In this document: piece by piece, positions 5,797 to 28,120 of the stretch
Position numbering within the stretch: the first letter of the stretch is position 1
Layout of the letters: every line of letters starts with the position of its first letter
From: a virus
Lineage: Duplodnaviria; Heunggongvirae; Uroviricota; Caudoviricetes
IMG/VR virus record: IMGVR_UViG_2690316278_000016
Length of the DNA: 28,120 bases
Reading direction: 5' to 3' (one strand)
Notes under the pieces: generated by a model
Databases searched by the model: none
Told to the model about the DNA's origin: nothing
Seen by the model: the letters and a program-made list of their open reading frames with translations, nothing else
Made by a program: the position numbers and the translations under genes

Positions 5797-5882
5797 CTCA
5801 ATAAATATGAGTTTATAAGTTAGGCCTCGAGATTTTGTAGAAAGGGATGTATACTGAGTATCGTATAGATTTGGAGTGAGTG

Positions 5883-6905: not shown

Positions 6906-6911
6906 TAAAAT

Positions 6912-6928
6912 GGCCTGCTTTACAGGCC
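6912..6928. terminator. Short hairpin between the convergent methyltransferase and HEPN genes (possible bidirectional terminator)
   Basis: GGCCTG-CTTTA-CAGGCC inverted repeat in the 29-bp gap between the two stop codons; stem is short and T-tracts are weak. Confidence 0.35.
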
Positions 6929-6934
6929 TTATAA

Positions 6935-7615
6935 CTATTGTTCTAAATATTCATTATTATTTATATAGTGCTCTATATTATTCACGATAGCATCAAGATA
7001 GGCGATTACTTCTAATGAAATATTCTCTAAGTCCTGATATGAAACATTTTTTCCAATCTCAGCAAATGATACATTGCCATGAGATAAATCATTACGATGT
7101 TGTTTAACAGTGGCTAATTTTTCACCATGTTTAGTGTGAGTGTAATCGGAATGTGTAGAAAAACCATATATTTTCGATTTTTCTTTGATTTCCTCTCTAT
7201 CAATATTTCCTGAGAATATTTTCTTTTTGTTGAACGTGCCATAAGATATACCGCAAGATATACCTTTGGTAAGGTGATTAACTAAACTTTCAACATTTAC
7301 AGATTCATTTTTTAATCTTTTTAATATTTCTGACCTGAGATTTTTCCTGAGTTTGTCAAATTCTACGTTTCTATCATAAATAGTCTCATGAATAAGGCAG
7401 ATAGCTTCTCTCATTGTTGATTCAATGAGGTTATATAACAGTATATATACTGCTCCCTTTAGAGTTTTTCGTGATTGAGCAGTAATGGAGAACTTATGTT
7501 CTTTATCATCAGCTGATATCAGTTCTGCACCGGCATACTCAATAAATTTCAAAAGATCCAAATAGGCCAAGATCTCTCCTGACCTTTCGTCAAAATCCTC
7601 ACGAAAACGATCCAT
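6935..7615 (-). CDS. HEPN-like domain protein (MAE_28990/MAE_18760-type), putative RNase effector
   Basis: 226 aa; C-terminal RNDLSHG fits the HEPN Rx4HG motif; start codon sits 1 nt after the upstream DUF262 gene stop (TAA-C-ATG). Confidence 0.6.
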   Translation of the reverse strand: MDRFREDFDERSGEILAYLDLLKFIEYAGAELISADDKEHKFSITAQSRKTLKGAVYILLYNLIESTMREAICLIHETIYDRNVEFDKLRKNLRSEILKRLKNESVNVESLVNHLTKGISCGISYGTFNKKKIFSGNIDREEIKEKSKIYGFSTHSDYTHTKHGEKLATVKQHRNDLSHGNVSFAEIGKNVSYQDLENISLEVIAYLDAIVNNIEHYINNNEYLEQ

Positions 7616-7616
7616 G

Positions 7617-8759
7617 TTAATCCTCTAATAATTTATCCCGAACATATTCAATTCGTTCAATTACCTTCACGCGACTATTAGCTCCGTCGGAAGTGGTCAA
7701 TCGTTTGAATTCTTCTGAGCTTAGCCAATCTAAGTTCTTGGGAACAAGGTCAGGGACTTCACGTAATGCAAGTGCTGCGCCAACAGCGAGAGATTCGAAT
7801 CTAACTCGAGGTGTAGATTTTGCAGTAATAGTTTTCTTGAATCCTGCTGGGAAATAGTTTTCAACAAAAGATAGAACATTAGCAAACTCTTGTTTCATTG
7901 AGTTTTGTTTAGTTTCGTCTATATCTCGATTTTCTGACATATAGTCATTTAGAAAATCCCGTACGGAATGATCAAAGTTCTTGTACTTATCTACGTAGGC
8001 AAAGAATCTTAATGTAAATTCTAACCGTTCATCTCGTTTTTCTTTAGTCTGAGATAAAGGTGCTAATTCTTTAAATTTAGGTATTGTTGAGCATGGCTTA
8101 ATAACCTGTGTATATAAATTTGTTGAACCAAGTTCTGATCCTTTACGGACTTCCATATCTTTCAATATATCGCTGCCAGAGTTAATACGCTCAAAAAGAT
8201 CTCTACGGGTTTCTTCATTGCATTTAGAACTCAATTCTATAACGCGGACAGGAATTCTCATGAAACGACGTTGACGTGATAATGGTAAATCTTGGAATTT
8301 GAAACCATTAAGGACGTCTAAAGATTTCAGGTCTTGTAAAACTAATTCATTTTGGATAAAAGCGTGTATAGTCCTAACTCGTTGTGAGCCATCAACAATC
8401 TCAATTCGCCCATCTAAATCGGGATCTTCGGAGAGAACATCTGCTATAAATATATATGGTATAGGAAAACCCAAAATCAAAGACTCTATCAATTTTGATT
8501 GTCTTTTTTCACTCCAAACAAAATCCCTTTGATAATCAGGAACAAAGAGTTCGTTAGTATCATCCTCTAATCCGTTATGATACTTATTAACTAATAACTC
8601 AACGGTAAATTCTTTGGTCTCAAAATCCACATCCTTTTGCTCAGCACGAATTTGCTCTTCAGCGTTTTGCTTTATCACCTCTAGCTGAGCAAGCAACTCT
8701 GCTCTTTTCTTGGCATTATCTTCATTTTCTAGTTGAGATTTTAAATCAATAATGTCCAT
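7617..8759 (-). CDS. DUF262 (ParB/Srx-like, GmrSD N-terminal-type) domain protein
   Basis: N-terminal DYQRDFVWS and IVDGSQRVRTI (DGQQR-type motif); ATG at 8759 with AAGGGAA RBS upstream, ORF track extends to a TTG at 8777; no obvious HNH/DUF1524 C-terminal motif. Confidence 0.7.
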   Translation of the reverse strand: MDIIDLKSQLENEDNAKKRAELLAQLEVIKQNAEEQIRAEQKDVDFETKEFTVELLVNKYHNGLEDDTNELFVPDYQRDFVWSEKRQSKLIESLILGFPIPYIFIADVLSEDPDLDGRIEIVDGSQRVRTIHAFIQNELVLQDLKSLDVLNGFKFQDLPLSRQRRFMRIPVRVIELSSKCNEETRRDLFERINSGSDILKDMEVRKGSELGSTNLYTQVIKPCSTIPKFKELAPLSQTKEKRDERLEFTLRFFAYVDKYKNFDHSVRDFLNDYMSENRDIDETKQNSMKQEFANVLSFVENYFPAGFKKTITAKSTPRVRFESLAVGAALALREVPDLVPKNLDWLSSEEFKRLTTSDGANSRVKVIERIEYVRDKLLED

Positions 8760-9103
8760 GTCTAGTTCCCTTAACAAGTGTTAAAAATTGAAGCGGATAG
8801 CATACCGCATAGATCATGAAAAATGCCATCATGTGCATGGATTTGCATGCGTCAGAAGTCGCTTTTATTGTTAGTTATCACTAGCGCTGGCGTGCTCTTG
8901 GAGTGTTCATGCAACTGCATTAAAACCGCCCCATGAAGCGGGCGGGCGAGGCGGGGAAAGCACTGCGCGCTGGCGGTGGTGCTGATTTTATTTTCCAGCG
9001 TCTCAGCGCGTCGTGACGGCGCTTAGTCTGCCCGTTGGGCGTTGGTGTGTCTGCGGGATTTTTTGTGCGGTGATGAGCGTGTGAGGGCGTGATGGCGGGG
9101 TGT

Positions 9104-9130: not shown

Positions 9131-10165
9131 TCAGCCGTTGTCAGTGTCCAGTGAGTAGTTTTTAAAGCGGATGACCTCCTGACCGAGCCAGCCGTTTATC
9201 TCGCGGATCCTGTCCTGTAACGGGATAAGCTCATTGCGGACAAAGACCTTTGCCACTTTCTCAATATCACCCAGCGACCCGACGTTCTCCGGCTTGCCCC
9301 CCATCAACTGAAAGGGGATGCGGTGCGCGTCCAGCAGGTCAGCGGCGCTGGCTTTTTTGATATTAAAAAAATCGTCCTTCGTTGCCACTTCACTGAGCGG
9401 GATAATTTTAATGCCGTCGGCTTTCCCCTGTGGGGCATAGAGAAACAGATTTTTAAAGTTATTGCGGCCTTTCGACTTAACCATGTTTTCGCGAAGCATT
9501 TCGATATCGTTGCGATCCTGCACGGCATCGGTGACGTACATGATGTATCCGGCATGTGCGCCGTTTTCGTAATACTTGCGGCGGAACAGCGTGGCCGACT
9601 CATTCAGCCATGCAGAGTTAAGGGCGCTGAGATATTCCGGCAGGCCGTACAGCTCCTGATTAATATCAGGCTCCAGCAGGTGAAACACGGAGCCGGGCGC
9701 GAAGGCTGTCGGCTCGTTGAAGGACGGCACCCACCAGTAAACATCCTCCTCCACGCCACGACGGGTATATTTGGCCGGTGAGGTTTCCAGTCTGATGACC
9801 TTACCGGTGGTGCTGTAACGCTTTTCCAGAAACGCATTACCGAACACCAGAAAATCCAGCACAAAACGGCTGAAATCCTGCTGGGAAAGCCACGGGTGCG
9901 GGATAAACGTTGAAGCCAGAATATTACGTTTGACGTAAATCGGTGAGCTGTGATGCACGGCAGCACGCAGGCTTTTTGCCAGACCGGTAAAGCTGACCGG
10001 CGGCTCATACCATCTGCCGTTACTGATGCACTCGACGTAATCCAGAATGTCACGGCGGTCGAGTACCGGCACCGGCTCACCAAAGGTGAATGCTTCCATT
10101 TTCGGGGCGCTGGCGGTGATTGTTTTTGCCGCAGGTCGCGGTGTTTTCCCTTTTTTCTTGCTCAT
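9131..10165 (-). CDS. Q: Portal protein (P2 gpQ-like)
   Basis: 344-aa ORF, same length as P2 Q, immediately downstream of the terminase with a TGATG stop/start overlap. Confidence 0.88.
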   Translation of the reverse strand: MSKKKGKTPRPAAKTITASAPKMEAFTFGEPVPVLDRRDILDYVECISNGRWYEPPVSFTGLAKSLRAAVHHSSPIYVKRNILASTFIPHPWLSQQDFSRFVLDFLVFGNAFLEKRYSTTGKVIRLETSPAKYTRRGVEEDVYWWVPSFNEPTAFAPGSVFHLLEPDINQELYGLPEYLSALNSAWLNESATLFRRKYYENGAHAGYIMYVTDAVQDRNDIEMLRENMVKSKGRNNFKNLFLYAPQGKADGIKIIPLSEVATKDDFFNIKKASAADLLDAHRIPFQLMGGKPENVGSLGDIEKVAKVFVRNELIPLQDRIREINGWLGQEVIRFKNYSLDTDNG

Positions 10166-13023: not shown

Positions 13024-14129
13024 ATGCGCCAGGAAACCCGCTTTAAATTTAATGCTTACCTGTCCCGTGTTGCCGAGCTGAACGGCATCGACGCCGGTGA
13101 TGTGTCGAAAAAATTCACCGTTGAACCGTCGGTCACCCAGACCCTGATGAACACCATGCAGGAGTCCTCTGACTTTCTGACCCGCATCAACATTGTGCCG
13201 GTCAGTGAAATGAAAGGGGAAAAAATTGGCATCGGTGTCACCGGCTCCATCGCCAGCACCACCGACACCGCCGGTGGCACCGAGCGTCAGCCGAAGGACT
13301 TCTCGAAGCTGGCGTCAAACAAGTACGAATGCGACCAGGTTAACTTCGATTTTTATATCCGCTACAAAACGCTTGACCTGTGGGCGCGTTATCAGGATTT
13401 CCAGCTCCGTATCCGTAACGCCATTATCAAACGCCAGTCCCTTGATTTCATCATGGCCGGTTTTAACGGCGTGAAGCGTGCCGAAACCTCTGACCGCAAC
13501 AGTAATCCGATGCTGCAGGATGTGGCGGTCGGCTGGCTGCAGAAATACCGAATGAAGCCCCGGCGCGCGTGATGAGCAAGGTCACTGACGAGGAAGGCCG
13601 CACCACCTCTGAGGTTATCCGCGTGGGTAAGGGCGGTGATTATGTAAGCCTCGATGNNNNNNNNNNNNNNNNNNNNNNNNNNNNNNNNNNNNNGGTGATG
13701 GATGCGACCAACAACCTGATTGAACCTTGGTATCAGGAAGACCCTGACCTTGTGGTGATTGTGGGGCGTCAGCTACTGGCGGACAAGTATTTCCCTATCG
13801 TCAACAAGGAGCAGGATAACAGCGAGATGCTGGCCGCTGACGTCATCATCAGCCAGAAACGCATCGGTAACCTGCCGGCGGTACGCGTCCCGTACTTCCC
13901 GGCGGATGCGATGCTCATCACGAAGCTGGAAAACCTGTCCATCTACTACATGGATGACAGCCATCGCCGCGTGATTGTGGAAAACCCGAAACTCGACCGC
14001 GTGGAGAACTACGAGTCAATGAACATTGATTACGTGGTGGAGGACTACGCCGCCGGTTGTCTGGTGGAAAAAATTAAGGTCGGTGATTTCTCCACACCGG
14101 CTAAAGCGACCGCAGAGCCGGGAGCGTAA
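13024..14129 (+). pseudogene. N: Major capsid protein (P2 gpN-like), reading frame broken near 13550 and containing a 37-nt N-gap (13657-13693)
   Basis: Two consecutive ORFs (13024-13572 and 13569-14129) in different frames together span about 368 codons, the expected size for gpN; may be a true frameshift or a sequencing indel. Confidence 0.75.
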
Positions 14130-14132
14130 CCG

Positions 14133-14876
14133 ATGACGAGTCCCGCACAGCGCCACATGATGCGGGTCTCGGCAGCGATGACCGCGCAGCGGGAAGCCGC
14201 CCCGCTGCGACATGCAACTGTCTATGAGCAGATGCTGGTCAAGCTGGCCGCAGACCAGCGCACACTGAAAGCGATTTATTCAAAAGAGCTGAAGGCCGCG
14301 AAAAAACGCGAACTGCTGCCGTTCTGGTTGCCGTGGGTGAACGGCGTGCTGGAGCAGGGCAAAGGTGCACAGGATGACATTCTGATGACGGTCATGCTGT
14401 GGCGTCTGGATACCGGCGATATTGCCGGTGCGCTGGAGATTGCCCGTTATGCCCTGAAGTACGGTCTGACCATGCCGGGTAAACACCGCCGCACCCCGCC
14501 GTACATATTCACCGAGGAGGTGGCGCTTGCGGCCATGCGCGCTCACGCTGCCGGTGAGTCTGTGGATCCCCGCCTGCTGACGGACACCCTCGAACTGACC
14601 GCCACGGCTGACATGCCTGATGAAGTGCGCGCAAAGCTGCACAAAATCACCGGTCTGTTTCTGCGTGACGCTGGTGATGCCGCAGGTGCGCTGGTACACC
14701 TGCAACGTGCGACACAGCTCGACTGTCAGGCAGGCGTCAAAAAAGAGATTGAACGACTGGAGCGGGAGCTGAAACCGAAGCCGGAGCCGCAGCCCAAAGC
14801 GGCCACCCGCACTCCGCGTAAGACCCGGAGCGTGACACCGGCAAAACGTGGACGCCCGAAAAAGAAAGCCAGTTAA
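14133..14876 (+). CDS. M: Terminase small/endonuclease subunit (P2 gpM-like)
   Basis: 247-aa ORF with basic Lys/Arg-rich C-terminus, position after capsid gene. Confidence 0.82.
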   Translation: MTSPAQRHMMRVSAAMTAQREAAPLRHATVYEQMLVKLAADQRTLKAIYSKELKAAKKRELLPFWLPWVNGVLEQGKGAQDDILMTVMLWRLDTGDIAGALEIARYALKYGLTMPGKHRRTPPYIFTEEVALAAMRAHAAGESVDPRLLTDTLELTATADMPDEVRAKLHKITGLFLRDAGDAAGALVHLQRATQLDCQAGVKKEIERLERELKPKPEPQPKAATRTPRKTRSVTPAKRGRPKKKAS

Positions 14877-14975
14877 CAACCGAATGCGCCCCGCGCCAGG
14901 GCGGCACGCCGGTCAGTGACGGTGAATCACCTGACACTGCACCGGCGTCCACCGCCCGACTTTTCAGAGGTAGTC

Positions 14976-15485
14976 ATGATGACGCTGATTATTCCGCGAA
15001 AGGAGGCTCCCGTGTCCGGTGAGGGTACGGTGGTTATCCCGCAACCGGCAGGCGACGAGCCGGTGATTAAAAACACGTTCTTTTTTCCCGATATTGACCC
15101 GAAGCGCGTCCGGGAACGTATGCGCCTTGAGCAGACCGTCGCCCCCGCCCGTCTGCGTGAGGCCATCAAGTCAGGCATGGCGGAGACGAATGCGGAGCTG
15201 TACGAGTACCGCGAACAGAAAATTGCTGCCGGTTTTTCGCGTCTGGCTGACGTCCCGGCGGACGACATCGACGGTGAAAGCATCAAAGTTTTTTACTACG
15301 AGCGCGCTGTGTGTGCGATGGCGACCGCGTCGCTTTATGAGCGTTACCGCGGCGTGGATGCCAGTGCCAAGGGCGACAAGAAGGCCGACAGCATTGACAG
15401 CACCATTGATGAGCTGTGGCGGGATATGCGCTGGGCGGTGGCGCGTATCCAGGACAAGCCGCGCTGCATCGTGAGTCAAATCTGA
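14976..15485 (+). CDS. L: Head completion/stabilisation protein (P2 gpL-like)
   Basis: 169 aa from ATG 14976 (MMTLIIPRK...); ORF track's 189-aa version starts upstream. Confidence 0.8.
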   Translation: MMTLIIPRKEAPVSGEGTVVIPQPAGDEPVIKNTFFFPDIDPKRVRERMRLEQTVAPARLREAIKSGMAETNAELYEYREQKIAAGFSRLADVPADDIDGESIKVFYYERAVCAMATASLYERYRGVDASAKGDKKADSIDSTIDELWRDMRWAVARIQDKPRCIVSQI

Positions 15486-15688
15486 TGAAGACCTTTGCGC
15501 TACAGGGCGACACGCTCGACGCCATTTGTGTTCGGTATTACGGGCGCACTGAGGGCGTGGTCGAGGCCGTGCTCGCCGCAAATCCGGGACTGGCTGAACT
15601 GGGGGCGGTGCTGCCACACGGCACCGCCGTCGAACTGCCCGACGTTCAGACCGCGCCCGTGGCTGAAACTGTCAATCTGTGGGAGTAA
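15485..15688 (+). CDS. X: Tail protein X-like (small LysM-like protein)
   Basis: 67 aa from ATG 15485 (MKTFALQGDTLDAI...), TGATG overlap with L. Confidence 0.75.
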   Translation: MKTFALQGDTLDAICVRYYGRTEGVVEAVLAANPGLAELGAVLPHGTAVELPDVQTAPVAETVNLWE

Positions 15689-15691
15689 CGC

Positions 15692-15973
15692 ATGACAGCA
15701 GAAGAAAAAAGCGTCCTGTCGCTTTTCATGATTGGGGTGCTGATTGTTGTCGGCAAGGTGCTTGCCGGTGGTGAACCCATCACTCCGCGTCTGTTTATCG
15801 GGCGCATGTTGCTCGGTGGTTTTGTCTCGATGGTTGCCGGTGTTGTTCTGGTGCAGTTTCCTGACCTGTCACTGCCTGCGGTGTGCGGCATCGGCTCCAT
15901 GCTGGGTATCGCCGGTTATCAGGTGATTGAGATTGCCATTCAGCGCCGCTTTAAGGGCAGGGGGAAACCGTAA
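15692..15973 (+). CDS. Y: Holin (P2 gpY-like)
   Basis: 93 aa with hydrophobic transmembrane stretches (LSLFMIGVLIVVGKVLAGG, LLGGFVSMVAGVVLV), directly upstream of the endolysin. Confidence 0.85.
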   Translation: MTAEEKSVLSLFMIGVLIVVGKVLAGGEPITPRLFIGRMLLGGFVSMVAGVVLVQFPDLSLPAVCGIGSMLGIAGYQVIEIAIQRRFKGRGKP

Positions 15974-16470
15974 TGCCGGTAATTAGCACACATCAGAATA
16001 TCGCCGCCTTTCTCGACATGCTGGCCGTGTCCGAAGGGACGGCGAATCATCCGCTGACGAAAAACCGGGGCTATGACGTGATAGTCACCGGACTGGACGG
16101 GAAGCCGGAAATCTTCACCGACTACAGTGACCACCCGTTCGCACATGGCCGACCGGCGAAGGTGTTTAACCGTCGCGGTGAAAAATCCACGGCCTCCGGT
16201 CGCTATCAGCAGCTTTACCTGTTCTGGCCGCACTACCGCAAACAGCTTGCCCTGCCGGATTTCAGTCCGTTGTCACAGGACAGGCTCGCCATTCAGTTGA
16301 TCCGCGAACGCGGTGCACTGGATGACATCCGGGCGGGACGCATTGAGCGCGCCATTTCACGCTGTCGCAATATCTGGGCGTCCCTGCCGGGTGCCGGTTA
16401 CGGTCAGCGTGAGCATTCACTGGAAAAACTGGTCACCGTCTGGCGCACCGCTGGCGGCGTACCGGCTTAA
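15973..16470 (+). CDS. K: Endolysin, lysozyme-like (P2 gpK-like)
   Basis: 165 aa, TAATG overlap with holin; position in the lysis cassette. Confidence 0.85.
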   Translation: MPVISTHQNIAAFLDMLAVSEGTANHPLTKNRGYDVIVTGLDGKPEIFTDYSDHPFAHGRPAKVFNRRGEKSTASGRYQQLYLFWPHYRKQLALPDFSPLSQDRLAIQLIRERGALDDIRAGRIERAISRCRNIWASLPGAGYGQREHSLEKLVTVWRTAGGVPA

Positions 16471-16484
16471 ACGGAGTAAACACC

Positions 16485-16910
16485 ATGAAGAAATTATCCC
16501 TTTCACTGATGCTGAACGTGTCGCTGGCGCTGATGCTGGCACTGTCCCTGATTTACCCGCAGAGCGTGGCCGTCAGTTTTGTCGCTGCATGGGCGATTCT
16601 GGCGACGGTTATCTGTGTGATTGCCGGTGGTGTCGGCGTGTATGCCGCGGAGTATGTGCTGGAACGCTACGGGCGGGAGCTGCCGCCGGAATCGCTGGCC
16701 GTGAAGATTGTCACGTCGCTGTTTTTGCAGCCGGTGCCGTGGCGCAGACGGGCAGCGGCTCTGATGGTGATGGTGGCGACGTTTATCTCGCTGGTCGCTG
16801 CCGGGTGGATTTTTACCGCACTGATTTATCTCGTGGCATCGCTGTTTTTCCGGCTGATACGTACGGCCTGCCGTCAGCGTCTTGAGGGGCGGGAACCATG
16901 TCAAAACTGA
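16485..16910 (+). CDS. lysA: LysA-like membrane protein (lysis timing)
   Basis: 141 aa with multiple hydrophobic helices, follows endolysin. Confidence 0.75.
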   Translation: MKKLSLSLMLNVSLALMLALSLIYPQSVAVSFVAAWAILATVICVIAGGVGVYAAEYVLERYGRELPPESLAVKIVTSLFLQPVPWRRRAAALMVMVATFISLVAAGWIFTALIYLVASLFFRLIRTACRQRLEGREPCQN

Positions 16911-17323
16911 TGATTGTGCTGGTTGTGTTGTTATCGCTGGCGGTGGCCGGTCTGTTTCTGGTGAAACACAAAAATGCCAGCCTGCGCGCCTTGCTGGACA
17001 GGGCGAACAACGTCGCCAGTGAACAGCAGACGACCATCACCATGCTGAAAAACCAGCTTCATGTTGCCCTCACCAGGGCAGACAAAAACGAGCTGGCGCA
17101 GGTGGCACTGCGTCAGGAACTGGAGAACGCCGCGAAGCGTGAAGCTCAGCGCGAGAAAACCATCACGAGGTTACTTAATGAAAACGAAGATTTTCGCCGC
17201 TGGTACGGTGCTGACCTGCCTGATGCTGTGCGCCGGTTGCACCAGCGCACAGCCTGCGCAGACGCCAGTGATTGTCCACAACGCCTGCCCGAAAGTGAGC
17301 CTTTGCCCGATGCCGGGCAGTGA
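16898..17323 (+). CDS. lysB: LysB, Rz-like inner-membrane spanin
   Basis: 141 aa, N-terminal TM segment (LMIVLVVLLSLAVAGLFLV) followed by charged coiled-coil-like region. Confidence 0.75.
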   Translation: MSKLMIVLVVLLSLAVAGLFLVKHKNASLRALLDRANNVASEQQTTITMLKNQLHVALTRADKNELAQVALRQELENAAKREAQREKTITRLLNENEDFRRWYGADLPDAVRRLHQRTACADASDCPQRLPESEPLPDAGQ

Positions 17324-17468
17324 CCCGCAGACGAACGGCGATTTAAGTGCTGATATCCGGCAGCTTGAGAACGCGCTGGCACGCTGTGCCAGCCAGGTAA
17401 AAATGATTAAACACTGTCAGGACGAAAACGATGCTCAAACCCGACAGCCTGCGCAGGGCGCTGACTGA
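17178..17468 (+). CDS. lysC: LysC, Rz1-like outer-membrane lipoprotein spanin, embedded in an alternative frame of lysB
   Basis: MKTKIFAAGTVLTCLMLCAGC lipoprotein signal peptide with lipobox LCAGC; starts inside lysB and extends past its stop. Confidence 0.7.
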   Translation: MKTKIFAAGTVLTCLMLCAGCTSAQPAQTPVIVHNACPKVSLCPMPGSDPQTNGDLSADIRQLENALARCASQVKMIKHCQDENDAQTRQPAQGAD

Positions 17469-17898
17469 TGCCGTCACGGTGCTGAAAACAAGCCCCGAGA
17501 TGCTGCGGATATTCGTGGATAACGGGAGTATTGCCTCCACACTGGCGACGTCGCTGTCATTCGAAAAGCGTTACACGCTCAACGTGATTGTGACCGACTT
17601 TACCGGTGATTTTGACCTGCTCATCGTGCCGGTGCTGGCGTGGCTGCGGGAAAATCAGCCCGACATCATGACCACCGACGAAGGCCAGAAAAAGGGCTTC
17701 ACGTTTTATGCAGACATCAACAATGACAGCAGCTTTGATATCAGCATCAGCCTGATGCTGACCGAGCGCACGCTGGTCAGTGAGGTGGACGGCGCGCTGC
17801 ATGTGAAGAATATCCCGGAACCTCCGCCGCCGGAGCCGGTCACCCGCCCGATGGAGCTTTATATCAATGGCGAACTGGTGAGTAAGTGGGATGAATGA
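17431..17898 (+). CDS. R: Tail completion protein R-like
   Basis: 155-aa ORF, size and position match P2 R. Confidence 0.8.
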   Translation: MLKPDSLRRALTDAVTVLKTSPEMLRIFVDNGSIASTLATSLSFEKRYTLNVIVTDFTGDFDLLIVPVLAWLRENQPDIMTTDEGQKKGFTFYADINNDSSFDISISLMLTERTLVSEVDGALHVKNIPEPPPPEPVTRPMELYINGELVSKWDE

Positions 17899-18343
17899 GT
17901 TTAAGCGTTTTGAAGACAGGCTGACCGGACTTATTGAGTCGCTGTCACCGTCAGGGCGTCGGCGACTGAGCGCCGAACTGGCGAAACGTCTGCGTCAGAG
18001 TCAGCAGCGTCGGGTGATGGCACAGAAAGCCCCGGACGGCACACCCTACGCACCACGCCAGCAGCAGAGCGCCAGAAAAAAGACCGGTCGCGTTAAGCGA
18101 AAAATGTTTGCGAAACTTATCACCAGTCGTTTTTTGCATATCCGCGCCAGCCCTGAACAGGCATCAATGGAGTTTTACGGCGGGAAGTCACCGAAAATAG
18201 CCAGTGTGCATCAGTTCGGTCTGTCGGAAGAAACCCGGAAAGACGGTAAGAAAATTCATTATCCGGCGCGTCCCCTGCTCGGCTTTACCGGTGAGGATGT
18301 GCAGATGATTGAAGAGATTATCCTGGCTCACCTCGACCGTTAG
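17891..18343 (+). CDS. S: Tail completion protein S-like
   Basis: 150-aa ORF, size and position match P2 S. Confidence 0.8.
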   Translation: MNEFKRFEDRLTGLIESLSPSGRRRLSAELAKRLRQSQQRRVMAQKAPDGTPYAPRQQQSARKKTGRVKRKMFAKLITSRFLHIRASPEQASMEFYGGKSPKIASVHQFGLSEETRKDGKKIHYPARPLLGFTGEDVQMIEEIILAHLDR

Positions 18344-18409
18344 TTGTGCCATTCCTGACACCTCATCGTCACATTGCCGCCGGTATGACCCGGCGGCATC
18401 CTTCCCGTT

Positions 18410-19236
18410 ATGAACACTCTCGCAAATATTCAGGAACTCGCGCGCGCACTGCGCAACATGATCCGCACCGGCATTAAGGTCGGTTTCGACGATAATGCCG
18501 GTNNNNNNNNNNNNNNNNNNNNNNNNNNNNNNNNNNNNNNNNNNNNNNNNNNNNNNNNNNNNNNNNNNNNNNNNNNNNNNNNNNNNNNNNNNNNNNNNNN
18601 NNNNNNNNNNNNNNNNNNNNNNNNNNNNNNNNNNNNNNNNNNNNNNACACGGCAGCGACCGGCATTATCGTCGAAACCGACCTTAATGCCGGTCGCTGCC
18701 GTGTGCAGACCGGCGGCATGTGCACCGACTGGCTTCAGTGGCTGACCCATCGCGCCGGACGTTCGCGCACATGGTGGGCACCTTCCGTGGGGGAACAGGT
18801 GCTGATTCTGGCCGTAGGCGGTGAACTCGACACGGCGTTCGTTCTGCCGGGGATTTATTCCGGTGATAACCCCGCGCCGTCTGCGTCGGCGGATGCCCTG
18901 CATATCCGTTTCCCTGACGGGGCGGTGATTGAGTATGAACCTGAAACCAGTGCACTCACGGTAAGCGGAATTAAAACGGCCAGCGTGACGGCTTCTGATT
19001 CTGTTACTGCCACGGTGCCGGTGGTCACGGTGAAAGCATCAACCCGCGTCACTCTGGACACGCCGGAGGTGGTCTGCACAAACAAGCTGATCACTGGCAC
19101 GCTGGAAGTGCAGAAGGGCGGGACGATGCGCGGCAACATTGAACACACCGGCGGTGAACTCTCATCAAACGGGAAGGTACTGCATACCCATAAACACCCC
19201 GGCGACAGCGGCGGCACAACCGGGAGTCCTCTATGA
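18410..19236 (+). CDS. V: Baseplate spike/assembly protein V-like, interrupted by a 144-nt N-gap with inverted-duplicate flanks
   Basis: N-terminus MNTLANIQELARALRNMIRTGI before the gap, then ...GIIVETDLNAGRCRVQTGGMCTDWLQWL... to stop at 19236; true length probably about 211 aa once the gap/duplication is removed. Confidence 0.75.
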
Positions 19237-19580
19237 CAGCGCGTTATCTCGGAATGAATCGCAGTGATGGCCTGACTGTCTCTGACCTTGAGCATATCAG
19301 CCAGAGTATCGGCGATATCCTGCGCACGCCGGTCGGCTCACGGGTGATGCGTCGTGATTACGGCTCGTTGCTGGCGTCAATGATTGACCAGCCGCAGACC
19401 CCGGCGCTTGAGTTGCAGATTAAGGTCGCCTGTTACATGGCCGTGCTGAAATGGGAAGCCCGCGTCACCCTGTCATCCGTCACCACGGCGCGCAGCTTTG
19501 ACGGGCGAATGACGGTCACGTTAACCGGCCAGCACAACGACACCGGCCAGCCACTTTCGTTAACCATCCCTGTGAGTTGA
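19233..19580 (+). CDS. W: Baseplate protein W-like (lysozyme-like gp25 family)
   Basis: 115-aa ORF overlapping the V stop. Confidence 0.8.
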   Translation: MTARYLGMNRSDGLTVSDLEHISQSIGDILRTPVGSRVMRRDYGSLLASMIDQPQTPALELQIKVACYMAVLKWEARVTLSSVTTARSFDGRMTVTLTGQHNDTGQPLSLTIPVS

Positions 19581-19584
19581 AACC

Positions 19585-20493
19585 ATGCCGATTATCGACC
19601 TGAACCAGCTACCCGCACCGGATGTGGTCGAGGAGCTGGACTTTGAAACCATTCTTGCCGAACGCAAGGCGACACTGATTTCCCTTTACCCGGAAGACCA
19701 GCAGGAGGCGGTCGCCCGTACCCTGACGCTGGAATCCGAGCCTCTCGTCAAACTGCTGGAGGAAAATGCTTATCGTGAGCTTATCTGGCGTCAGCGTGTG
19801 AATGAGGCCGCACGGGCGGTAATGCTGGCCTGTGCCGCCGGTAATGACCTTGATGTGATTGGTGCCAATTACAACACCACGCGCCTGATTATCACCCCGG
19901 CAGATGATTCGACCCTCCCGCCGACACCGGCAGTGATGGAATCTGACACGGATTATCGTCTGCGTATTCAGCAGGCGTTTGAAGGTTTAAGCGTCGCCGG
20001 GTCGGTGGGGGCCTATCAGTATCATGGTCGCAGTGCCGACGGGCGTGTCGCGGATATTTCTGTAACCAGTCCGTCTCCGGCCTGCGTCACCATCTCTGTG
20101 CTGTCACGTGAAAATAACGGTGTCGCATCCGAAGACCTGCTGGCGGTGGTGCGTAACGCCCTTAATGGTGAGGACGTCAGGCCGGTGGCCGACCGCGTGA
20201 CCGTGCAGTCTGCCGCCATCGTTGAATACCAGATAAACGCCACGCTTTACCTTTACCCTGGTCCCGAAAGCGAACCCATACGCGCTGCTGCCGTGAAAAA
20301 ACTGGAAGCGTACATCACGGCACAGCACCGGCTGGGGCGCGACATCCGTCTGTCTGCCATTTATGCCGCTTTGCATGTGGAAGGCGTGCAGCGTGTCGAA
20401 CTGACTGCACCGCTGGCCGACATCGTGCTCAACAGTACGCAGGCGTCTTTCTGTACCGAATACCGCGTCGTGACCGGAGGCTCGGATGAGTGA
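19585..20493 (+). CDS. J: Baseplate protein J-like
   Basis: 302-aa ORF, size and position match P2 J. Confidence 0.85.
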   Translation: MPIIDLNQLPAPDVVEELDFETILAERKATLISLYPEDQQEAVARTLTLESEPLVKLLEENAYRELIWRQRVNEAARAVMLACAAGNDLDVIGANYNTTRLIITPADDSTLPPTPAVMESDTDYRLRIQQAFEGLSVAGSVGAYQYHGRSADGRVADISVTSPSPACVTISVLSRENNGVASEDLLAVVRNALNGEDVRPVADRVTVQSAAIVEYQINATLYLYPGPESEPIRAAAVKKLEAYITAQHRLGRDIRLSAIYAALHVEGVQRVELTAPLADIVLNSTQASFCTEYRVVTGGSDE

Positions 20494-21016
20494 TTCGCGA
20501 CTGCTGCCGACCGGCTCATCACCGCTTGAAGTTGCCGCCGCAAAAGCCTGTGCGGAAATTGAAAAAACGCCGGTCAGGATTCGTGAACTGTGGAACCCGG
20601 ATACCTGTCCGGCAAATCTGCTGCCGTGGCTGGCGTGGGCGTTTTCGGTCGACAGGTGGGATGAAAAGTGGCCGGAAGCGACAAAACGCGCCGTTATCCG
20701 CGATGCCTATTTCATCCACTGTCATAAAGGCACTATCGGCGCAATCCGGCGTGTGGTGGAGCCGCTCGGCTATCTCATCAACGTGACGGAGTGGTGGGAA
20801 AACAGTGACCCGCCCGGCACCTTCCGGCTTGATATTGGTGTACTGGAAAGCGGCATCACAGAGGCAATGTATCAGGAAATGGAACGGCTTATTGCTGATG
20901 CCAAACCTGCAAGCCGTCATCTTATTGGCCTGAACATTACCCGGGACATTCCCGGCTACCTGTTCGCCGGTGGTGTGGCTTACGACGGCGATGTAATTAC
21001 GGTTTACCCCGGATAA
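20486..21016 (+). CDS. I: Tail/baseplate protein I-like
   Basis: 176-aa ORF overlapping the J stop; ends ...AYDGDVITVYPG. Confidence 0.8.
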   Translation: MSDSRLLPTGSSPLEVAAAKACAEIEKTPVRIRELWNPDTCPANLLPWLAWAFSVDRWDEKWPEATKRAVIRDAYFIHCHKGTIGAIRRVVEPLGYLINVTEWWENSDPPGTFRLDIGVLESGITEAMYQEMERLIADAKPASRHLIGLNITRDIPGYLFAGGVAYDGDVITVYPG

Positions 21017-21026
21017 GTGAGGAATA

Positions 21027-21846
21027 ATGAGCACAAAATTCAGAACCGTTATCACCACTGCCGGTGCAGCAAAGCTGGCAGCGGCAACCGCACCGGGAGG
21101 GCGGAAGGTCAACATTACCACGATGGCCGTCGGGGATGGCGGTGGTAAATTGCCTGTCCCGGATGCCGGACAGACCGGGCTTATCCACGAAGTCTGGCGA
21201 CATACGCTGAACAAAATCAGCCAGGACAAACGAAACAGTAATTATATTATCGCAGAGCTGGTTATTCCGCCGGAGGTGGGCGGTTTCTGGATGCGTGAGC
21301 TTGGCCTGTACGATGATGCGGGAACGTTAATTGCCGTGGCGAACATGGCCGAAAGTTATAAGCCAGCTCTTGCCGAAGGCTCAGGGCGTTCGCAGACCTG
21401 TCGCATGGTCATCATCGTCAGCAGTGTGGCCTCGGTGGAGCTGACCATTGACACCACAACGGTGATGGCGACACAGGATTACGTTGATGACAAAATTGCA
21501 GAGCACGAACAGTCACGACGTCACCCGGACGCCTCGCTGACCGCAAAAGGTTTTACTCAGTTAAGCAGTGCGACCAACAGCACGTCTGAAACACTGGCCG
21601 CAACGCCGAAAGCGGTAAAGGCCGCCTATGACCTTGCTAACGGGAAATACACTGCACAGGACGCCACTACAGCGCGAAAAGGTCTTGTCCAGCTCAGTAG
21701 TGCCACCAACAGCACGTCTGAAACGCTTGCGGCAACGCCAAAGGCGGTTAAGACAGCGTATGACCTTGCTAACGGGAAATACACTGCACAGGACGCCACT
21801 ACAGCGCGAAAAGGTCTTGTCCAGCTAAGTAGTGCCATCAACAGCG
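21027..21846 (+). CDS. H: Tail fibre protein, 5' portion (copy 1) including phage-fibre tandem repeats; truncated at an ambiguous base
   Basis: N-terminus MSTKFRTVITTAGAAKLAAATAPGG...MAVGDGGG; repeat units ...QLSSATNSTSETLAATPKAVK...; ORF then runs into a gene-I-like 3' end after the n at 21847. Confidence 0.7.
21545..21846 (+). repeat. In-frame 132-bp (44-aa) tandem repeat, about 2.3 copies, phage tail-fibre repeat
   Basis: Unit starts at 21545, 21677 and 21809 are near-identical at DNA level; further partial copies at 22914-22993 and 23092-23218 across N-gaps. Confidence 0.8.
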
Positions 21847-21847
21847 N

Positions 21848-21893
21848 AGCAACTTACGACGGTGAAGTCATTACCATTTATCCGGACGATTAA
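21848..21893 (+). other. Remnant 3' end of a second gene-I-like ORF fused after the ambiguous base
   Basis: Encodes ATYDGEVITIYPDD-stop, paralogous to the end of gene I (AYDGDVITVYPG-stop), followed 2 nt later by a second tail-fibre start. Confidence 0.5.
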
Positions 21894-21895
21894 GC

Positions 21896-22764
21896 ATGAG
21901 TACCACAACACGAAAATTTAAAACCATTATCACCGATACGGGTGCAAAAAAATTAGCGCAGGCAACCGCGCCAGATGGGAAACCTGTCCGCCTGACACAT
22001 ATGGCCGTGGGTGACGGCGGCGGTACTTTACCCACGCCAGACAGTAAGCAGACCCGTCTTGTGCATGAGGTGTGGCGACATACCGTTAATCGCGTCACCC
22101 TGGACGCAACACATCAGAACCACATTATTGCGGAGCTGGTTATTCCTCCTGAAACGGGCGGATTCTGGATCCGGGAAATTGGTGTGTTTGATGAGCACGG
22201 CGATTTGATCGCGGTAGGCAATACTGCCGAAAGTTACAAGCCAACCGTTGCCGAAGGATCCGGACGTGCACAAACATTTCGCACCATTCTGACCGTATCC
22301 AGCACTGCCACTGTGGCGCTTACCGTGGATAACACCATGGTGATGGCCACAGTGAATTACGTGGATGACAAACTGAAAGAGCATGAACAGTCACGACGTC
22401 ACCCGGACGCCTCGCTGACCGCAAAAGGCCTTGTCCAGCTCAGCAACGCCACCAACAGCACGTCTGAAACGCTGGCAGCGACACCAAAAGCCGTTAAGGC
22501 AGTAATGGATGAAACGAACAAGAAAGCCCCATTAAACAGCCCGGCACTGACCGGAACGCCAACAACACCAACTGCGCGACAGGGAACGAATAATACCCAA
22601 ATCGCAAGCACGGCTTTCGTTATGGCTGCGATTGCCGCACTTGTAGACTCTTCGCCTGATGCACTGAACACACTGAACGAGCTGGCGGCGGCGCTGGGCA
22701 ACGACCCGAATTTTGCGACCACCATGACTAACGCGCTTGCGGGTAAGCAACCGAAAGATGCCAC
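21896..22764 (+). CDS. Tail fibre protein, 5' portion (copy 2, diverged paralogue of copy 1), truncated at an N-gap
   Basis: N-terminus MSTTTRKFKTIITDTGAKKLAQATAPDGKPVRLTHMAVGDGGG..., colinear with but clearly diverged from copy 1; same SRRHPDASLTAKGLVQLS repeat entry. Confidence 0.65.
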
Positions 22765-22775
22765 NNNNNNNNNNN

Positions 22776-25161
22776 TTCGCAGACCTGTCGCATGGTCATC
22801 ATCGTCAGCAGTGTGGCCTCGGTGGAGCTGACCATTGACACCACAACGGTGATGGCGACACAGGATTACGTTGATGACAAAATTGCAGAGCACGAACAGT
22901 CACGACGTCACCCGGACGCCTCGCTGACCGCAAAAGGCCTTGTCCAGCTCAGTAGTGCCACCAACAGCACGTCTGAAACGCTTGCGGCAACGCNNNNNNN
23001 NNNNNNNNNNNNNNNNNNNNNNNNNNNNNNNNNNNNNNNNNNNNNNNNNNNNNNNNNNNNNNNNNNNNNNNNNNNNNNNNNNNNNNNNNNNACCAACAGC
23101 ACGTCTGAAACACTGGCCGCAACGCCGAAAGCGGTAAAGGCCGCCTATGACCTTGCTAACGGGAAATACACTGCACAGGACGCCACTACAGCGCGAAAAG
23201 GTCTTGTCCAGCTCAGTANNNNNNNNNNNNNNNNNNNNNNNNNNNNNNNNNNNNNNNNNNNNNNNNNNNNNNNNNNNNNNNNNNNNNNNNNNNNNNNNNN
23301 NNNNNNNNNNNNNNNNNNNNNNNNNNNNNNNNNNNNNNNNNNNNNNNNNNNNNNNNNNNNNNNNNNNNNNNNNNNNNNNNNNNNNNNNNNNNNNNNNNNN
23401 NNNNNNNNNNNNNNNNNNNNNNNNNNNNNNNNNNNNNNNNNNNNNNNNNNNNNNNNNNNNNNNNNNNNNNNNNNNNNNNNNNNNNNNNNNNNNNNNNNNN
23501 NNNNNNNTGCCACTCTGACGGCGCTGGCGGGGCTTGCTACTGCGGCAGACAGGTTTCCGTATTTTACGGGGAATGATGTCGCCAGCCTGGCAACCCTGAC
23601 AAAAGTCGGGCGGGATATTCTTGCGAAATCGACCGTTGCCGCCGTTATCGAATACCTCGGTTTACAGGAAACGGTAAATCAGGCTTCTGGCGCATTACAG
23701 AAAAACCAGAACGGCGCAGATATTCCGGGGAAAGATACCTTCACCAAAAATATTGGTGCCTGCCGCGCATATAGCTCATGGCTGAATATTGGTGGCGATA
23801 GTCAGGTCTGGACAACCGCGCAATTTATTTCGTGGCTGGAGAGTCAGGGAGCATTTAACCATCCTTACTGGATGTGCAAAGGCTCATGGGCTTATGCAAA
23901 TAATAAGGTCATTACAGATACAGGTTGCGGAAATATTTGTCTTGCAGGTGCTGTGGTGGAAGTTATTGGCACTCGCGGCGCAATGACCATACGCGTTACC
24001 ACGCCGAGCACGTCCAGCGNNNNNNNNNNNAACGACCCGAATTTTGCGACCACCATGACTAACGCGCTTGCGGGTAAGCAACCGAAAGATGCCACCCTGA
24101 CGGCGCTGGCCGGACTTACTACTGCGGCAGGCAAGTTTCCGTATTTTACGGGGAATGATGTCGCCAGCCTGGCAACCCTGACAAAAGTCGGGCGGGATAT
24201 TCTTGCGAAATCGACCGTTGCTGCCGTTATCGAATACCTCGGTTTACGAGAACTCGGCACAAGCGGGGAGAAAATACCGTTACTCAGTACAGCGAATACC
24301 TGGACTAATCGACAAACATTCAGCGGTGGCCTTTCTGGTGAACTATCCGGCAATGCTTCTACAGCTGCAAAATTAAAAACTGCCAGGAAAATAAGCAATG
24401 TGGCTTTTGATGGTTCCTCCGATATCACATTAAAAGCAAGTCATGTTGGTGCGTTTGCCTTAGGGAAAACAGGAAGCACCGTTGCGAATGATAAAGCAGT
24501 TGGATGGAACTGGAGTAGCGGAGCCTATAACGCAACTATTAGTGGTGCATCAACGTTAATTATTCATTTTTATATGGGAGAAGGAAGTTGTCCTGCAGCT
24601 CAGTTTCGGATTAATTATAAAAATGGCGGTATTTTTTATCGTTCAGCCCGTGATGGTTATGGTTTTGAAGCCGACTGGTCCGAATTTTACACCACCAGAA
24701 AACCTTCAGCAGGAGATGTTGGTGCACTGCCGTTATCTGGTGGTCAACTGAATGGTGCACTGGGTATCGGAACATCCAGTGCTCTTGGCGGTAATTCGAT
24801 TGTATTGGGTGATAATGACACGGGCTTTAAACAAAAAGGCGATGGTAATCTGGATGTTTATGCTAATAACGTCCATGTTATGCGCTTTGTCTCCGGAAGC
24901 ATTCAAAGTAATAAAACCATAAATATTACGGGACGTGTTAATCCCTCGGATTACGGTAACTTTGATTCCCGCTATGTGAGAGATGTCAGACTTGGCACAC
25001 GAGTTGTTTAGACCATGAAGAAAGGCGTGATGTATGAAAAATCAGGCCATGTAATCACGGGGCTTGGTATTATCGGTGAAGTCGATGGTGATGATCCGGC
25101 AGTATTCAGACCAATACAAAAGTTAATTAACGGAACATGGTATAACGTATCGCAGGTATAA
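22776..25161 (+). pseudogene. H: Tail fibre mosaic: repeated blocks and two alternative C-terminal regions joined through four N-gaps; in-frame TAG at 25009-25011
   Basis: 22776-22940 duplicates 21393-21557; 23508-23660 and 24110-24250 are near-duplicates; C-terminal region ends ...RLGTRVV-TAG-TMKKGVMYEK...[17 protein letters not shown]-stop, same frame either side of the TAG. Confidence 0.55.
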
Positions 25162-25163
25162 TC

Positions 25164-25442
25164 ATGCAGCATTTAAAAAACATTGTCGCAGGTAATCCAA
25201 AAACCGTTGAACAATACCAGCTAACAAAGAATTTTGATGTTATCTGGTTATGGTCCGAAGATGGAAAAAATTGGCATGAGGAATTAAAAAACTTTCAGGA
25301 GGATACAATAAAACTGGCTTACACAGTTGAGGGAATAATTATTGCTATAGACAAGGATGTATCAGCAATTAATCCAGAAGGTTTAAGTGTCGTTGAGTTG
25401 CCTGATATTACAGCAAATCGCCGGGCTGATATTTCGGGCAAC
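25164..25442 (+). pseudogene. G: Tail fibre assembly protein (tfa, P2 gpG-like), 5' half only, truncated by IS3-family element
   Basis: N-terminus [22 protein letters not shown]...[13 protein letters not shown] is colinear with the two intact tfa paralogues downstream, then switches to transposase sequence after the n at 25444. Confidence 0.7.
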
Positions 25443-26582
25443 TNTGAAAATCAACTTTCGATCAGTGAAGGCGCTTCCCGATTATCTCTTCCTGAAGGCA
25501 CTTTAGGACAATGGGTTACCGCCGCCAGAAAAGGGCTCGGTACTCCTGGTTCCCGCACGGTGGCTGAACTGGAATCTGAAATTCTGCAACTGCGTAAGGC
25601 GTTAAATGAAGCTCGCCTTGAGCGAGATATATTAAAAAAAGCAACAGCGTATTTTGCACAGGAGTCGCTGAAAAATACGCGTTAATCGAACAATGGCGAC
25701 AACAATTTCCCATTGAAGCGATGTGTCAGGTATTTGGTGTATCCAGGAGCGGTTATTACAACTGGGTACAGCATGAACCCTCAGACAGAAAACAAAGTGA
25801 TGAGCGGCTAAAACTGGAGATTAAGGTGGCACATATCCGCACTCGCGAAACATATGGAACCCGGCGGCTCCAGACGGAGCTGGCAGAGAATGGCATCATC
25901 GTTGGTCGTGACCGACTGGCACGTCTTCGTAAGGAGCTAAGGCTACGCTGTAAGCAGAAACGCAAGTTCAGAGCGACTACGAACTCGAACCACAATCTGC
26001 CAGTTGCGCCAAATCTGCTGAACCAGACGTTCGCTCCTACAGCACCAAATCAGGTCTGGGTGGCGGACCTGACGTATGTTGCCACACAGGAGGGATGGTT
26101 GTACCTCGCTGGCATCAAAGATGTTTATACGTGCGAAATTGTCGGCTACGCCATGGGAGAGCGCATGACAAAAGAGCTGACAGGTAAAGCCCTGTTTATG
26201 GCGCTCAGGAGCCAGCGCCCACCTGCCGGGCTAATCCACCACTCTGATCGAGGTTCACAGTACTGCGCATACGATTACCGGGTCATACAGGAGCAGTCTG
26301 GTCTGAAAACATCAATGTCGCGTAAAGGTAACTGTTACGACAACGCTCCGATGGAAAGCTTCTGGGGAACGCTGAAAAATGAGAGCCTGAGCCACTATCG
26401 TTTTAATAACCGGGATGAAGCCATCTCAGTAATACGGGAATACATTGAGATTTTCTACAATCGTCAGCGTCGTCACTCTCGTCTGGGGAATATCTCCCCG
26501 GCAGCCTTCAGGGAAAAATATCATCAGATGGCTGCTTAAAAAAAGAACAAATGGTAGTGTCCGCTATTGCCAGTACACCTCA
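25443..26582 (+). mobile_element. IS3-family insertion sequence, apparently 5'-truncated (orfA lacks its first ~20-25 codons and no left inverted repeat or UTR is present)
   Basis: orfA-like frame to stop at 25683-25685 (…WVTAARKG…ILKKATAYFAQESL), A7 slippery run at 25634-25640, orfB in the -1 frame to 26539 with DDE/rve-like residues (WVADLTYV, HSDRGSQY, YDNAPMESFW); boundaries approximate. Confidence 0.75.
25634..25640 (+). promoter_or_regulatory. Programmed -1 ribosomal frameshift site (A AAA AAA) for the OrfAB transposase fusion
   Basis: Heptamer lies in the orfA frame just before the orfA stop; the -1 frame is open from here into orfB. Confidence 0.55.
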
Positions 26583-26849
26583 GAGTTTTACACCACAACC
26601 CGCAAACCCTCTGCGGGAGATGTTGGTGCATATACGCAGGCAGAATGTAACTCAAGGTTTATTACAGGTATTCGCCTTGGTGGTCTGTTATCTGTTCAGA
26701 CATGGAATGGTCCCGGATGGTCTGACAGGTCAGGTTATGTTGTTACCGGTTCCGTTAACTCAAACAGAGATGAACTAATTGATACAACTCAGGCAAGGCC
26801 AATTCAGTATTGCATTAATGGGACGTGGTATAACGCGGGGAGTATTTAA
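26583..26849 (+). pseudogene. 3' remnant of an alternative tail-fibre C-terminal (receptor-binding) domain, detached from its 5' part by the IS
   Basis: Encodes EFYTTTRKPSAGDVGA...[17 protein letters not shown]-stop, paralogous to the H C-terminus (EFYTTRKPSAGDVGA...[17 protein letters not shown]); immediately followed by a tfa gene. Confidence 0.65.
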
Positions 26850-26851
26850 CG

Positions 26852-27564
26852 ATGATGCACTTAAAAAACATTTCTGCTGGTAATCCTGAAACAAAAGAGC
26901 AATACCAGCTAACGAAACAATTTAACATCAAATGGCTTTATACAGAGGATGGGAAAAACTGGTATGAGGAACAAAAGAACTTTCAGCCTGATACGTTGAA
27001 AATGGTCTATGACCACAACGGCGTTATTATTTGTATTGAAAAGGATGTTTCAGCAATTAATCCGGAAGGCGCAAGCGTCGTTGAGGTTCCTGATATTACA
27101 GCAAATCGCCGGGCTGATATTTCAGGTAAATGGATGTTCAAAGATGGCGTAGTGATAAAGCGAACTTATACCGGGGAAGAGCAGAGGCAACAAGCGGAAA
27201 ATGAAAAGCAAAGCCTGCTACAGCTNNNNNNNNNNNNNNNNNNNNNNNNNNNNNNNNNNNNNNNNNNNNNNNNNNNNNNNNNNNNNNNNNNNNNNNNNNN
27301 NNNNNNNNNNNNNNNNNNNNNNNNNNNNNNNNNNNNNNNNNNNNNNATACCGGGGAAGAGCAGAGGCAACAAGCGGAAAATGAAAAGCAAAGCCTGCTAC
27401 AGCTCGTCAGGGATAAAACCCAGCTATGGGACTCACAGCTACGGCTGGGCATTATTTCCGACGAGAATAAACAAAAATTAACCGAGTGGATGCTCTATGC
27501 GCAGAAGGTCGAATCCACAGACACCTCCAGCCTGCCAGTAACGTTTCCCGAACAACCAGAATGA
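26852..27564 (+). CDS. Tail fibre assembly protein (tfa paralogue 2), containing an N-gap with duplicated flanks
   Basis: N-terminus [22 protein letters not shown]...[20 protein letters not shown]; gap at 27226-27346 is flanked by an identical ~59-bp sequence on both sides. Confidence 0.75.
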
Positions 27565-27567
27565 AAC

Positions 27568-27594
27568 AAGGCCCGATATCGGGCCTTAATTTTT
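27568..27594. terminator. Palindromic hairpin with T-run between convergent tfa genes (bidirectional terminator)
   Basis: AAGGCCCGATATCGGGCCTT perfect palindrome at 27568-27587 followed by AATTTTT. Confidence 0.6.
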
Positions 27595-28120
27595 ACTCAG
27601 GCTTTTGTGGCCATTCTGGCTTTGCCGTATCCACACGGCTGACCAGAACACTGTAGCGTTCCCATGCTTCCAGTCGTGTGCGTTCCTCGTCCGTCGCCAT
27701 ATTCAGCCTGACAGCGCGTTCCAGCGGCTGGATGACTGATTCAGCTTCGGAAAGCAATGCGGCCTTTTGTGATTCGGCCTGTTGTTGCTGTTCGTCAGCC
27801 GTATAAATCCGTTTAACCACAGCTCCGTCCTTAAACATCCACTTACCGGAATCATCAGCACGACGATTAGCTGTAATATCAGGAACCTCAACGACGCTAT
27901 AACCTTCAGGGTTAAGCGTGGAGGCATCTTTGGTGATGGCGACAATAATATTATTTGCATCGTAAACAATCTTTATTGTGTCTGGCTGAAAGTTCTTCAC
28001 TTCCTCATACCAGTTTTTTCCGTCCTCAGAGTAAAGCCAGATGACTCCGTGCTTCTTTGTTAACTCATACTGCTCCACTGTTTTAGCATTACCTGCTTTT
28101 ATGTTCTTTAAGTGCATCAT
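27593..28120 (-). CDS. Tail fibre assembly protein (tfa paralogue 3), opposite strand, complete
   Basis: 175 aa, [22 protein letters not shown]...[20 protein letters not shown]; start codon at the last 3 bases of the window. Confidence 0.8.

Follow-up and report, generated by a model that had tools for sequence, protein, structure and literature searches.

In phage P2 (Peduovirus), the tail genes run in the order V-W-J-I-H-G, and the fibre protein H requires both its own C-terminal part and the chaperone G (PMC9942202). The sharing of fibre modules among unrelated phages and the presence of variable fibre ends flanked by invertases are both established (PMC8986868, where Haggard-Ljungquist et al. 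1992 (J Bacteriol 174:1462, PMC206541) and Sandmeier are cited). In the P88-like prophages (Xuanwuvirus), the sheath-tube-E-T-U block and V-W-J-I-H lie on opposite strands and are separated by the invertase at 11 of 11 loci (L001 and L045-L054), an arrangement that the P2 gene order lacks. In these relatives, a Resolvase/HTH_7 gene adjoins the fibre segment, and H has 656 or 678 aa according to orientation; judged by comparison of these loci, their fibre locus is probably invertible.

The stretch of DNA analysed here (28,120 nt, called the window throughout) is collinear with P2-type prophages over positions 1-21846, and four pieces to the right of that point are 99.9-100% identical to the I-3'/H/tfa/tfa' locus of P88-like prophages. 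A first-pass annotation had described the region ending at 22764 as two diverged fibre 5' regions in tandem and had offered two explanations: a real duplication of the I-3'/H-5' junction giving two fibre alleles, or a chimeric scaffold joining different P2-like prophages. Comparison with other assemblies makes it highly probable that the apparent tandem is a chimeric-scaffold artefact of a short-read draft. The features on which this reading depends are listed here in the order in which they stand in the window.

20486-21016 (+): gene I of prophage 1 (P2/Peduovirus type), complete, 176 aa; Tail_P2_I, E=8e-56; collinear with E. coli BS15R-A
21027-21846 (+): 5' 820 nt (273 codons) of fibre gene H of prophage 1 (fibre 1); matches H of BS15R-A and has Phage_tail_fib and Phage_fiber_2
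21545-21846 (+): 132-nt (44-aa) tandem repeat array in fibre 1; the contig breaks inside it
21847: single N, read here as a scaffold join between contigs of two different prophages; BS15R-A similarity ends at it, and 100% identity to E. coli FDAARGOS_943 starts at 21848
21848-21893 (+): 3'-terminal 46 nt of the prophage-2 gene I (14 codons and the stop); contig-end fragment
21896-22764 (+): 5' 869 nt of fibre gene H2 of prophage 2 (P88/Xuanwuvirus-like; fibre 2)
22776-22993 (+): orphan 218-nt contig, a variant of fibre 1, 94.5% to 21389-21606
23092-23218 (+): 127-nt contig with one fibre-1 repeat unit, an exact copy of 21573-21699
23508-24019 (+): continuation of H2, running from the end of the constant part through the crossover region into one variable C-terminal part
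24031-25443 (+): third fibre gene, 3' part only (ending at 25011), and the first 280 nt of its assembly-protein gene; lambdoid side-fibre type
25445-26582 (+): 3' 1138 nt of IS600 (IS3 family), 99.9% to IS600 family transposase copies; rve, HTH_21
26580-27225 (+): end of the H2 variable part and start of its assembly-protein gene, prophage 2
27347-28120: remainder of the assembly-protein gene of prophage 2 (+) and, at 27593-28120 (-), a second, inverted assembly-protein gene; Caudo_TAP

To the left of the N, the likeness to P2 includes a gene I with Tail_P2_I, the H-type N-terminal domain and the fibre repeats, and H of P2 and of fiAA91-ss matches the fibre repeat region of the window at 94%. 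The prophage of E. coli BS15R-A is 97-99% identical from the capsid gene onward (the part compared being window 13263-21846) and 98.8% identical over 18658-21846. Gene I at 20486-21016 ends in YDGDVITVYPG and a stop, aligns with positions 1-139 of the 139 in the Tail_P2_I profile and has J upstream as in BS15R-A; it is the only sequence in the window that forms a full P2 gpI gene, that is, an ORF of about 176 aa with Tail_P2_I between J and H. The first fibre start, correctly placed at 21027 by the first-pass annotation, reads MSTKFRTVITTAGAAK. From there, fibre 1 aligns ungapped with H of BS15R-A (764 aa) as far as the base adjoining the N, and all similarity is lost after it; past the cut point, the BS15R-A gene extends for another repeat unit and about 490 further codons. 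Within the repeat array, 21545-21713 and 21677-21845 are 88.8% identical, and BS15R-A has more units beyond. Fibre 1 is evidently truncated at codon 273 of about 764, within the 132-nt (44-aa) tandem repeat. In this the window differs from P2: besides the cut in H, it is without the C-terminal part of H, gene G and the sheath and tube genes, since the repeat array is where the contig stops. As P2 H needs its C-terminal part and G, a fibre 1 of 273 codons would not be functional.

The base at 21847, noted earlier as ambiguous, is a single N, and beyond it a second fibre start does stand at 21896, reading MSTTTRKFKTIITDTGAKK and clearly diverged from the first, as had been described. The two fibre 5' regions are 70.6% identical over 656 nt (E=7e-78 in a self-comparison), and the N-terminal proteins are 69% identical over 204 aa (E=9e-108), a likeness far above chance. 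Both contain Phage_tail_fib (Pfam E values of 5e-59 and 2e-55) followed by Phage_fiber_2 repeats (2e-46 and 5e-21), which is the N-terminal organization of P2 gpH. As scaffolded, neither fibre forms an ORF that continues to a receptor-binding C-terminal part with tfa/G after it. Position 22764, given earlier as the end of the region, is a contig end with 11 N's next. The gene-I-like terminus that was said to precede the second fibre is present at 21848-21893, where it reads ATYDGEVITIYPDD and a stop, although it amounts to no gene: 14 codons plus a stop, at a contig end beside the N, qualify neither as a gene nor as a substantial fragment of one.

The true context of this second fibre start is apparent from its relatives. 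In E. coli FDAARGOS_943 (L001), the sequence of 21848-21893 recurs without change as the 3' end of a gene I that is complete (531 nt), and there V, W and J stand before that gene and a single fibre gene H stands after it. All of 21848-22764 is 100% identical over 917 nt to this locus and to L005, L012, L045-L050 and L054, and the I/H junction of the Xuanwuvirus P884B11 is 100% identical to the second one of the window. We compared 40 IMG/VR contigs in which the opening 78 nt of 21848-22764 recur exactly: 39 of them carry a complete gene I just upstream (86-100% identity over 485 nt), and the fortieth has 1 nt upstream; fibre repeats upstream of a start of this type were seen in 0 of the 40, and the window itself is not one of the 40. 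One gene I and one H gene are present at all 10 further genome places of the prophage 2 type. Compared with the P88-like prophages, the window has 46 nt of gene I and zero upstream genes, and 326 nt of H2 (L005 4517-4842) are missing from it.

The remaining parts of this locus are found farther to the right in the window. The piece at 23508-24019 is 100% identical to L005 4005-4516, which lies directly after the counterpart of 21848-22764 there; 26580-27225 is 100% identical to L005 4843-5488 and to L045; and 27347-28120 is 100% identical to L005 5431-6204 and overlaps the preceding piece by 58 nt. In L005, L045, L048, L052 and L053, all of them gap-free contigs or chromosomes, the four pieces are contiguous and in the same order at 99.9-100%. 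Joined as in L005, they encode an intact fibre of 656 aa and its assembly protein, with a second assembly-protein gene in inverted orientation, and fibre 2 is continuous only if 21896-22764, 23508-24019 and the sequence from 26580 onward are joined in that way. In the window, they are separated by 22776-22993 and 23092-23218 (fragments of the fibre-1 repeats), by 24031-25443 and by the 3' 1138 nt of IS600. We read this as a misjoin because the pieces of prophage 2 are contiguous in gap-free assemblies yet are separated by foreign pieces in the window; parts of one locus are interleaved with other loci, with N runs between them, and N's are present at every locus switch. The earlier proposal of a chimeric scaffold is thus borne out in its essential part, in that the flanks of the N match two prophage types up to the base adjoining it. 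Its simpler picture of two prophages joined once does not hold, as at least three fibre loci and IS600 are interleaved over 21847-27346.

The alternative that the structure is real would have the last 46 nt of gene I and a second fibre 5' region inserted or duplicated beside fibre 1, with the N no more than an ambiguous call. The given sequence does read this way, only a single N lies between the two parts, and tail-fibre genes are known to be hot spots of recombination (PMC8986868, citing Haggard-Ljungquist 1992 and Sandmeier). However, the breakpoint falls exactly on the N, without homology on either side. Fibre 1 would lose its whole C-terminal two-thirds, and fibre 2, whose four pieces are contiguous at 100% in other assemblies, would be broken by fibre-1 fragments and by the 3' end of a third fibre. 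A genuine duplication would be expected to show an uninterrupted junction and to recur in independent assemblies; here the N sits at the junction, the flanks match different loci to the adjacent base, and no collinear junction was found. A 161-nt query centred on the N had no place at least 80% covered in 5,426 complete E. coli genomes, none of the 64 phage records that it matched (50,697 searched) reached at least 80% coverage, and every match covers one side of the N only. Further, a second single-N join, at 25444, makes an equally abrupt switch, from the assembly-protein gene of 24031-25443 into the interior of IS600. Taken together, these observations make a real tandem extremely unlikely. 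The related proposal, that illegitimate recombination between co-resident P2-family prophages put a P88-like I-3'/H-5' fragment into the P2-like fibre gene, with two fibre N-terminal modules left in tandem, and that the N is a miscall, is likewise extremely unlikely.

A longer query gave a result of a different kind. With 801 nt around the junction, 512 records had "places" of at least 80%, and these were rejected as support for a tandem, being joins of two pieces that proved non-collinear in the one place examined. In that place, MFDS1006657 (L003), the I/H half matches upstream (4001-4400) and the repeat half downstream (4486-4877); this place is, to judge from that layout, an ordinary single fibre gene, and the phage matches of the 801-nt query show the same two-piece pattern. 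An exact probe with the last 59 nt before the N at 21847 had no match in viral contigs, and probes for the second gene I body and for the I/H junction had none in genome contigs; the assembly protein at the right end of the window led to relatives only. A literature search on prophage misassembly returned nothing specific.

It is also conceivable that part of the right-hand sequence belongs to prophage 1 after all. Here, the fibre of prophage 1 would have recombined in nature with a P88-like fibre at the shared linker and repeats, so that what follows, from the 3' end of the fibre gene through the assembly-protein genes to the invertible segment, would truly belong to prophage 1, and only the 21848-22764 contig and the small repeat contigs would be misplaced. 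Module exchange of this sort is well documented (PMC8986868), fibres 1 and 2 have exact common stretches (a 44-nt linker) able to mediate it, and the true 3' part of fibre 1 can be identified nowhere in the window. Nevertheless, 23508-24019 overlaps the end of 21848-22764 and extends it with 100% identity, just as in L005 and L045, which is the simpler placement, and the fibre of BS15R-A, the closest relative of prophage 1 at 98.8%, is without the NDPNFATT constant segment. We regard such a hybrid as very unlikely, and the tandem of two fibre starts would still be an artefact if it existed.

Returning to the misjoin, the foreign pieces can mostly be traced. The piece at 24031-25443 is 99.2% identical to the lambdoid stf/tfa of E. 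coli NCTC86 and 100% identical to L033, and has a gp37_C domain. In NCTC86, whose lambdoid stf/tfa has a Pin-type invertible segment, its counterpart lies downstream of lambdoid J and lom, whereas the window places it between N's, amid P88-like fibre pieces. The sequence upstream of that counterpart in NCTC86 and L033 is 92-94% identical to 21848-22764 and is absent from the window. The start of 24031-25443 repeats the final 65 nt of 21848-22764 exactly, and 21848-22764 ends on the last base that it has exactly in common with a fibre of this type, the very next base being different; this end bears what is evidently the signature of a branch point in an assembly graph. As a continuation of 21848-22764, the piece was considered and rejected, because 23508-24019 continues 21848-22764 at 100% in L005, L045 and others; over the following 152 nt, 24031-25443 shows 7 mismatches, and in NCTC86 and L033 it is preceded by a different sequence of its own. 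In L033, another draft scaffold, pieces of these two kinds are likewise linked by one N, and the misjoin therefore recurs.

The two short contigs have fibre-1 sequence. The one at 23092-23218 is the exact repeat-unit copy listed above. In the orphan at 22776-22993, the end of the fibre-1 N-domain is fused to a later repeat unit, with one 132-nt unit skipped and one base typical of fibre 2, and at 99% or above it had no match in 5,426 E. coli genomes. An origin as a de Bruijn path chimera of fibres 1 and 2 was rejected, as the roughly 14 nt common at the second switch are too short for a k-mer jump. It could be a rare third fibre allele, or a read-level chimera or small misassembly.

The gaps themselves are informative. 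The window contains nine N runs (13657-13693, 18503-18646, 21847, 22765-22775, 22994-23091, 23219-23507, 24020-24030, 25444 and 27226-27346), and six of the nine fall within 21847-27346, a stretch that is a chain of short contigs. The flanks of the 121 N's at 27226-27346 overlap by 58 nt, and those of the 144 N's at 18503-18646 overlap by 36 nt in a palindromic stretch; the lengths of the gaps are therefore untrustworthy. The 37 N's at 13657-13693 correspond to about 6 nt in BS15R-A. Judged against their flanks and this relative, the first two gaps are demonstrably false and the third is mis-sized, and it is for this reason that the V gene and one tfa gene look interrupted. Overlapping contig ends of this kind are like those of graph-based short-read assemblies.

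On the preferred reading, the source genome would hold at least two P2-family prophages, one P2/Peduovirus-like (1-21846) and one P88/Xuanwuvirus-like with an invertible fibre segment, and probably also a lambdoid prophage with a side tail fibre. Modules that the fibre genes have in common, exactly or nearly so, are the linker EHEQSRRHPDASLTAKG, the 132-nt repeat units STNSTSETLAATPKAVK and the constant segment NDPNFATTMTNALAGKQPKDAT (NDPNFATT...KDAT). The identity and true context of each piece were read directly from the comparisons, and from these we infer how the assembler and the scaffolder behaved. First, the assembler would have broken every fibre gene at the shared repeats, leaving short contigs. 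Second, the scaffolder, misled by read pairs bridging shared modules, would have chained contigs of different loci with N's between them. A single N is what some scaffolders insert where they estimate a gap of zero or negative length. Contig ends do lie at the edges of shared repeats at 22764 and at 21846 (inside the 132-nt array); 21848, the left end of 21848-22764, is without an obvious repeat edge inside the window. N's at the switches, exact overlaps of flanks (36, 58 and 65 nt) and a contig end at a shared-repeat edge are as in repeat-induced scaffolding errors, and the window has in addition one contig that copies a repeat unit exactly and one near copy; nothing in it is atypical of such errors.

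The tandem fibre starts are no real genomic feature, and they matter as quality control only. Annotators would call a fictitious 288-aa "tail fibre" at 21027-21893, a 311-aa one at 21896-22831 and a 739-aa ORF running through N's at 22792-25011, all of which arise because the reading runs across N's. The first of these is made up of 273 codons of fibre 1, the N and the last 14 gene-I codons of the other prophage, in frame by chance. A two-fibre P2-like phage, or a hybrid prophage, might be wrongly inferred from the scaffold. The window is reliable for prophage 1 only up to 21846, and the fibre region from 21847 on is unfit for inference of host range or of receptor-binding proteins without long-read resolution. 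The biology that it shows, a strain with several prophages that have common fibre modules, is already well known.

Several smaller observations concern inversion and insertion in these loci. In FDAARGOS_943, the sequence of 23508-24019 is split by an inversion and lies at 9912-10089 and 13153-12775, the match changing strand exactly at the putative crossover site. The window carries two opposed tfa genes and ends before any invertase gene. Two short sequences, TTATCGAATACCTCGGTTTACAGGAA at 23646-23671 and TTTACGAGAA at 24228-24253, mark the boundary between constant and variable parts in two fibre pieces, and we take them to resemble crossover sites of the Din family (gix/cix/pix). IS600, which is joined to the preceding 24031-25443 by a single N, abuts the H2 variable part at about 26580, within a contig free of N's. 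Neither L005 nor any of 10 related loci shows the junction at about 26580, and several of these loci have IS600 elsewhere, in the crossover site beside the invertase or inside a tfa gene; the junction may represent a genuine insertion, peculiar to this strain, by which the fibre is disrupted. IS600 is abundant, which hints at a source rich in IS elements and similar to Shigella.

Finally, three cargo genes of prophage 1 lie between its replication gene A and the capsid genes, at window 5880-8777.

5880-6905 (+): C-5 cytosine methylase
6935-7615 (-): HEPN_MAE_28990 protein
7617-8777 (-): GmrSD_N/DUF262 protein, matching PADLOC NsnA and PD-T4-2_A

This cargo is probably an anti-phage defence island in a known P2 hotspot.
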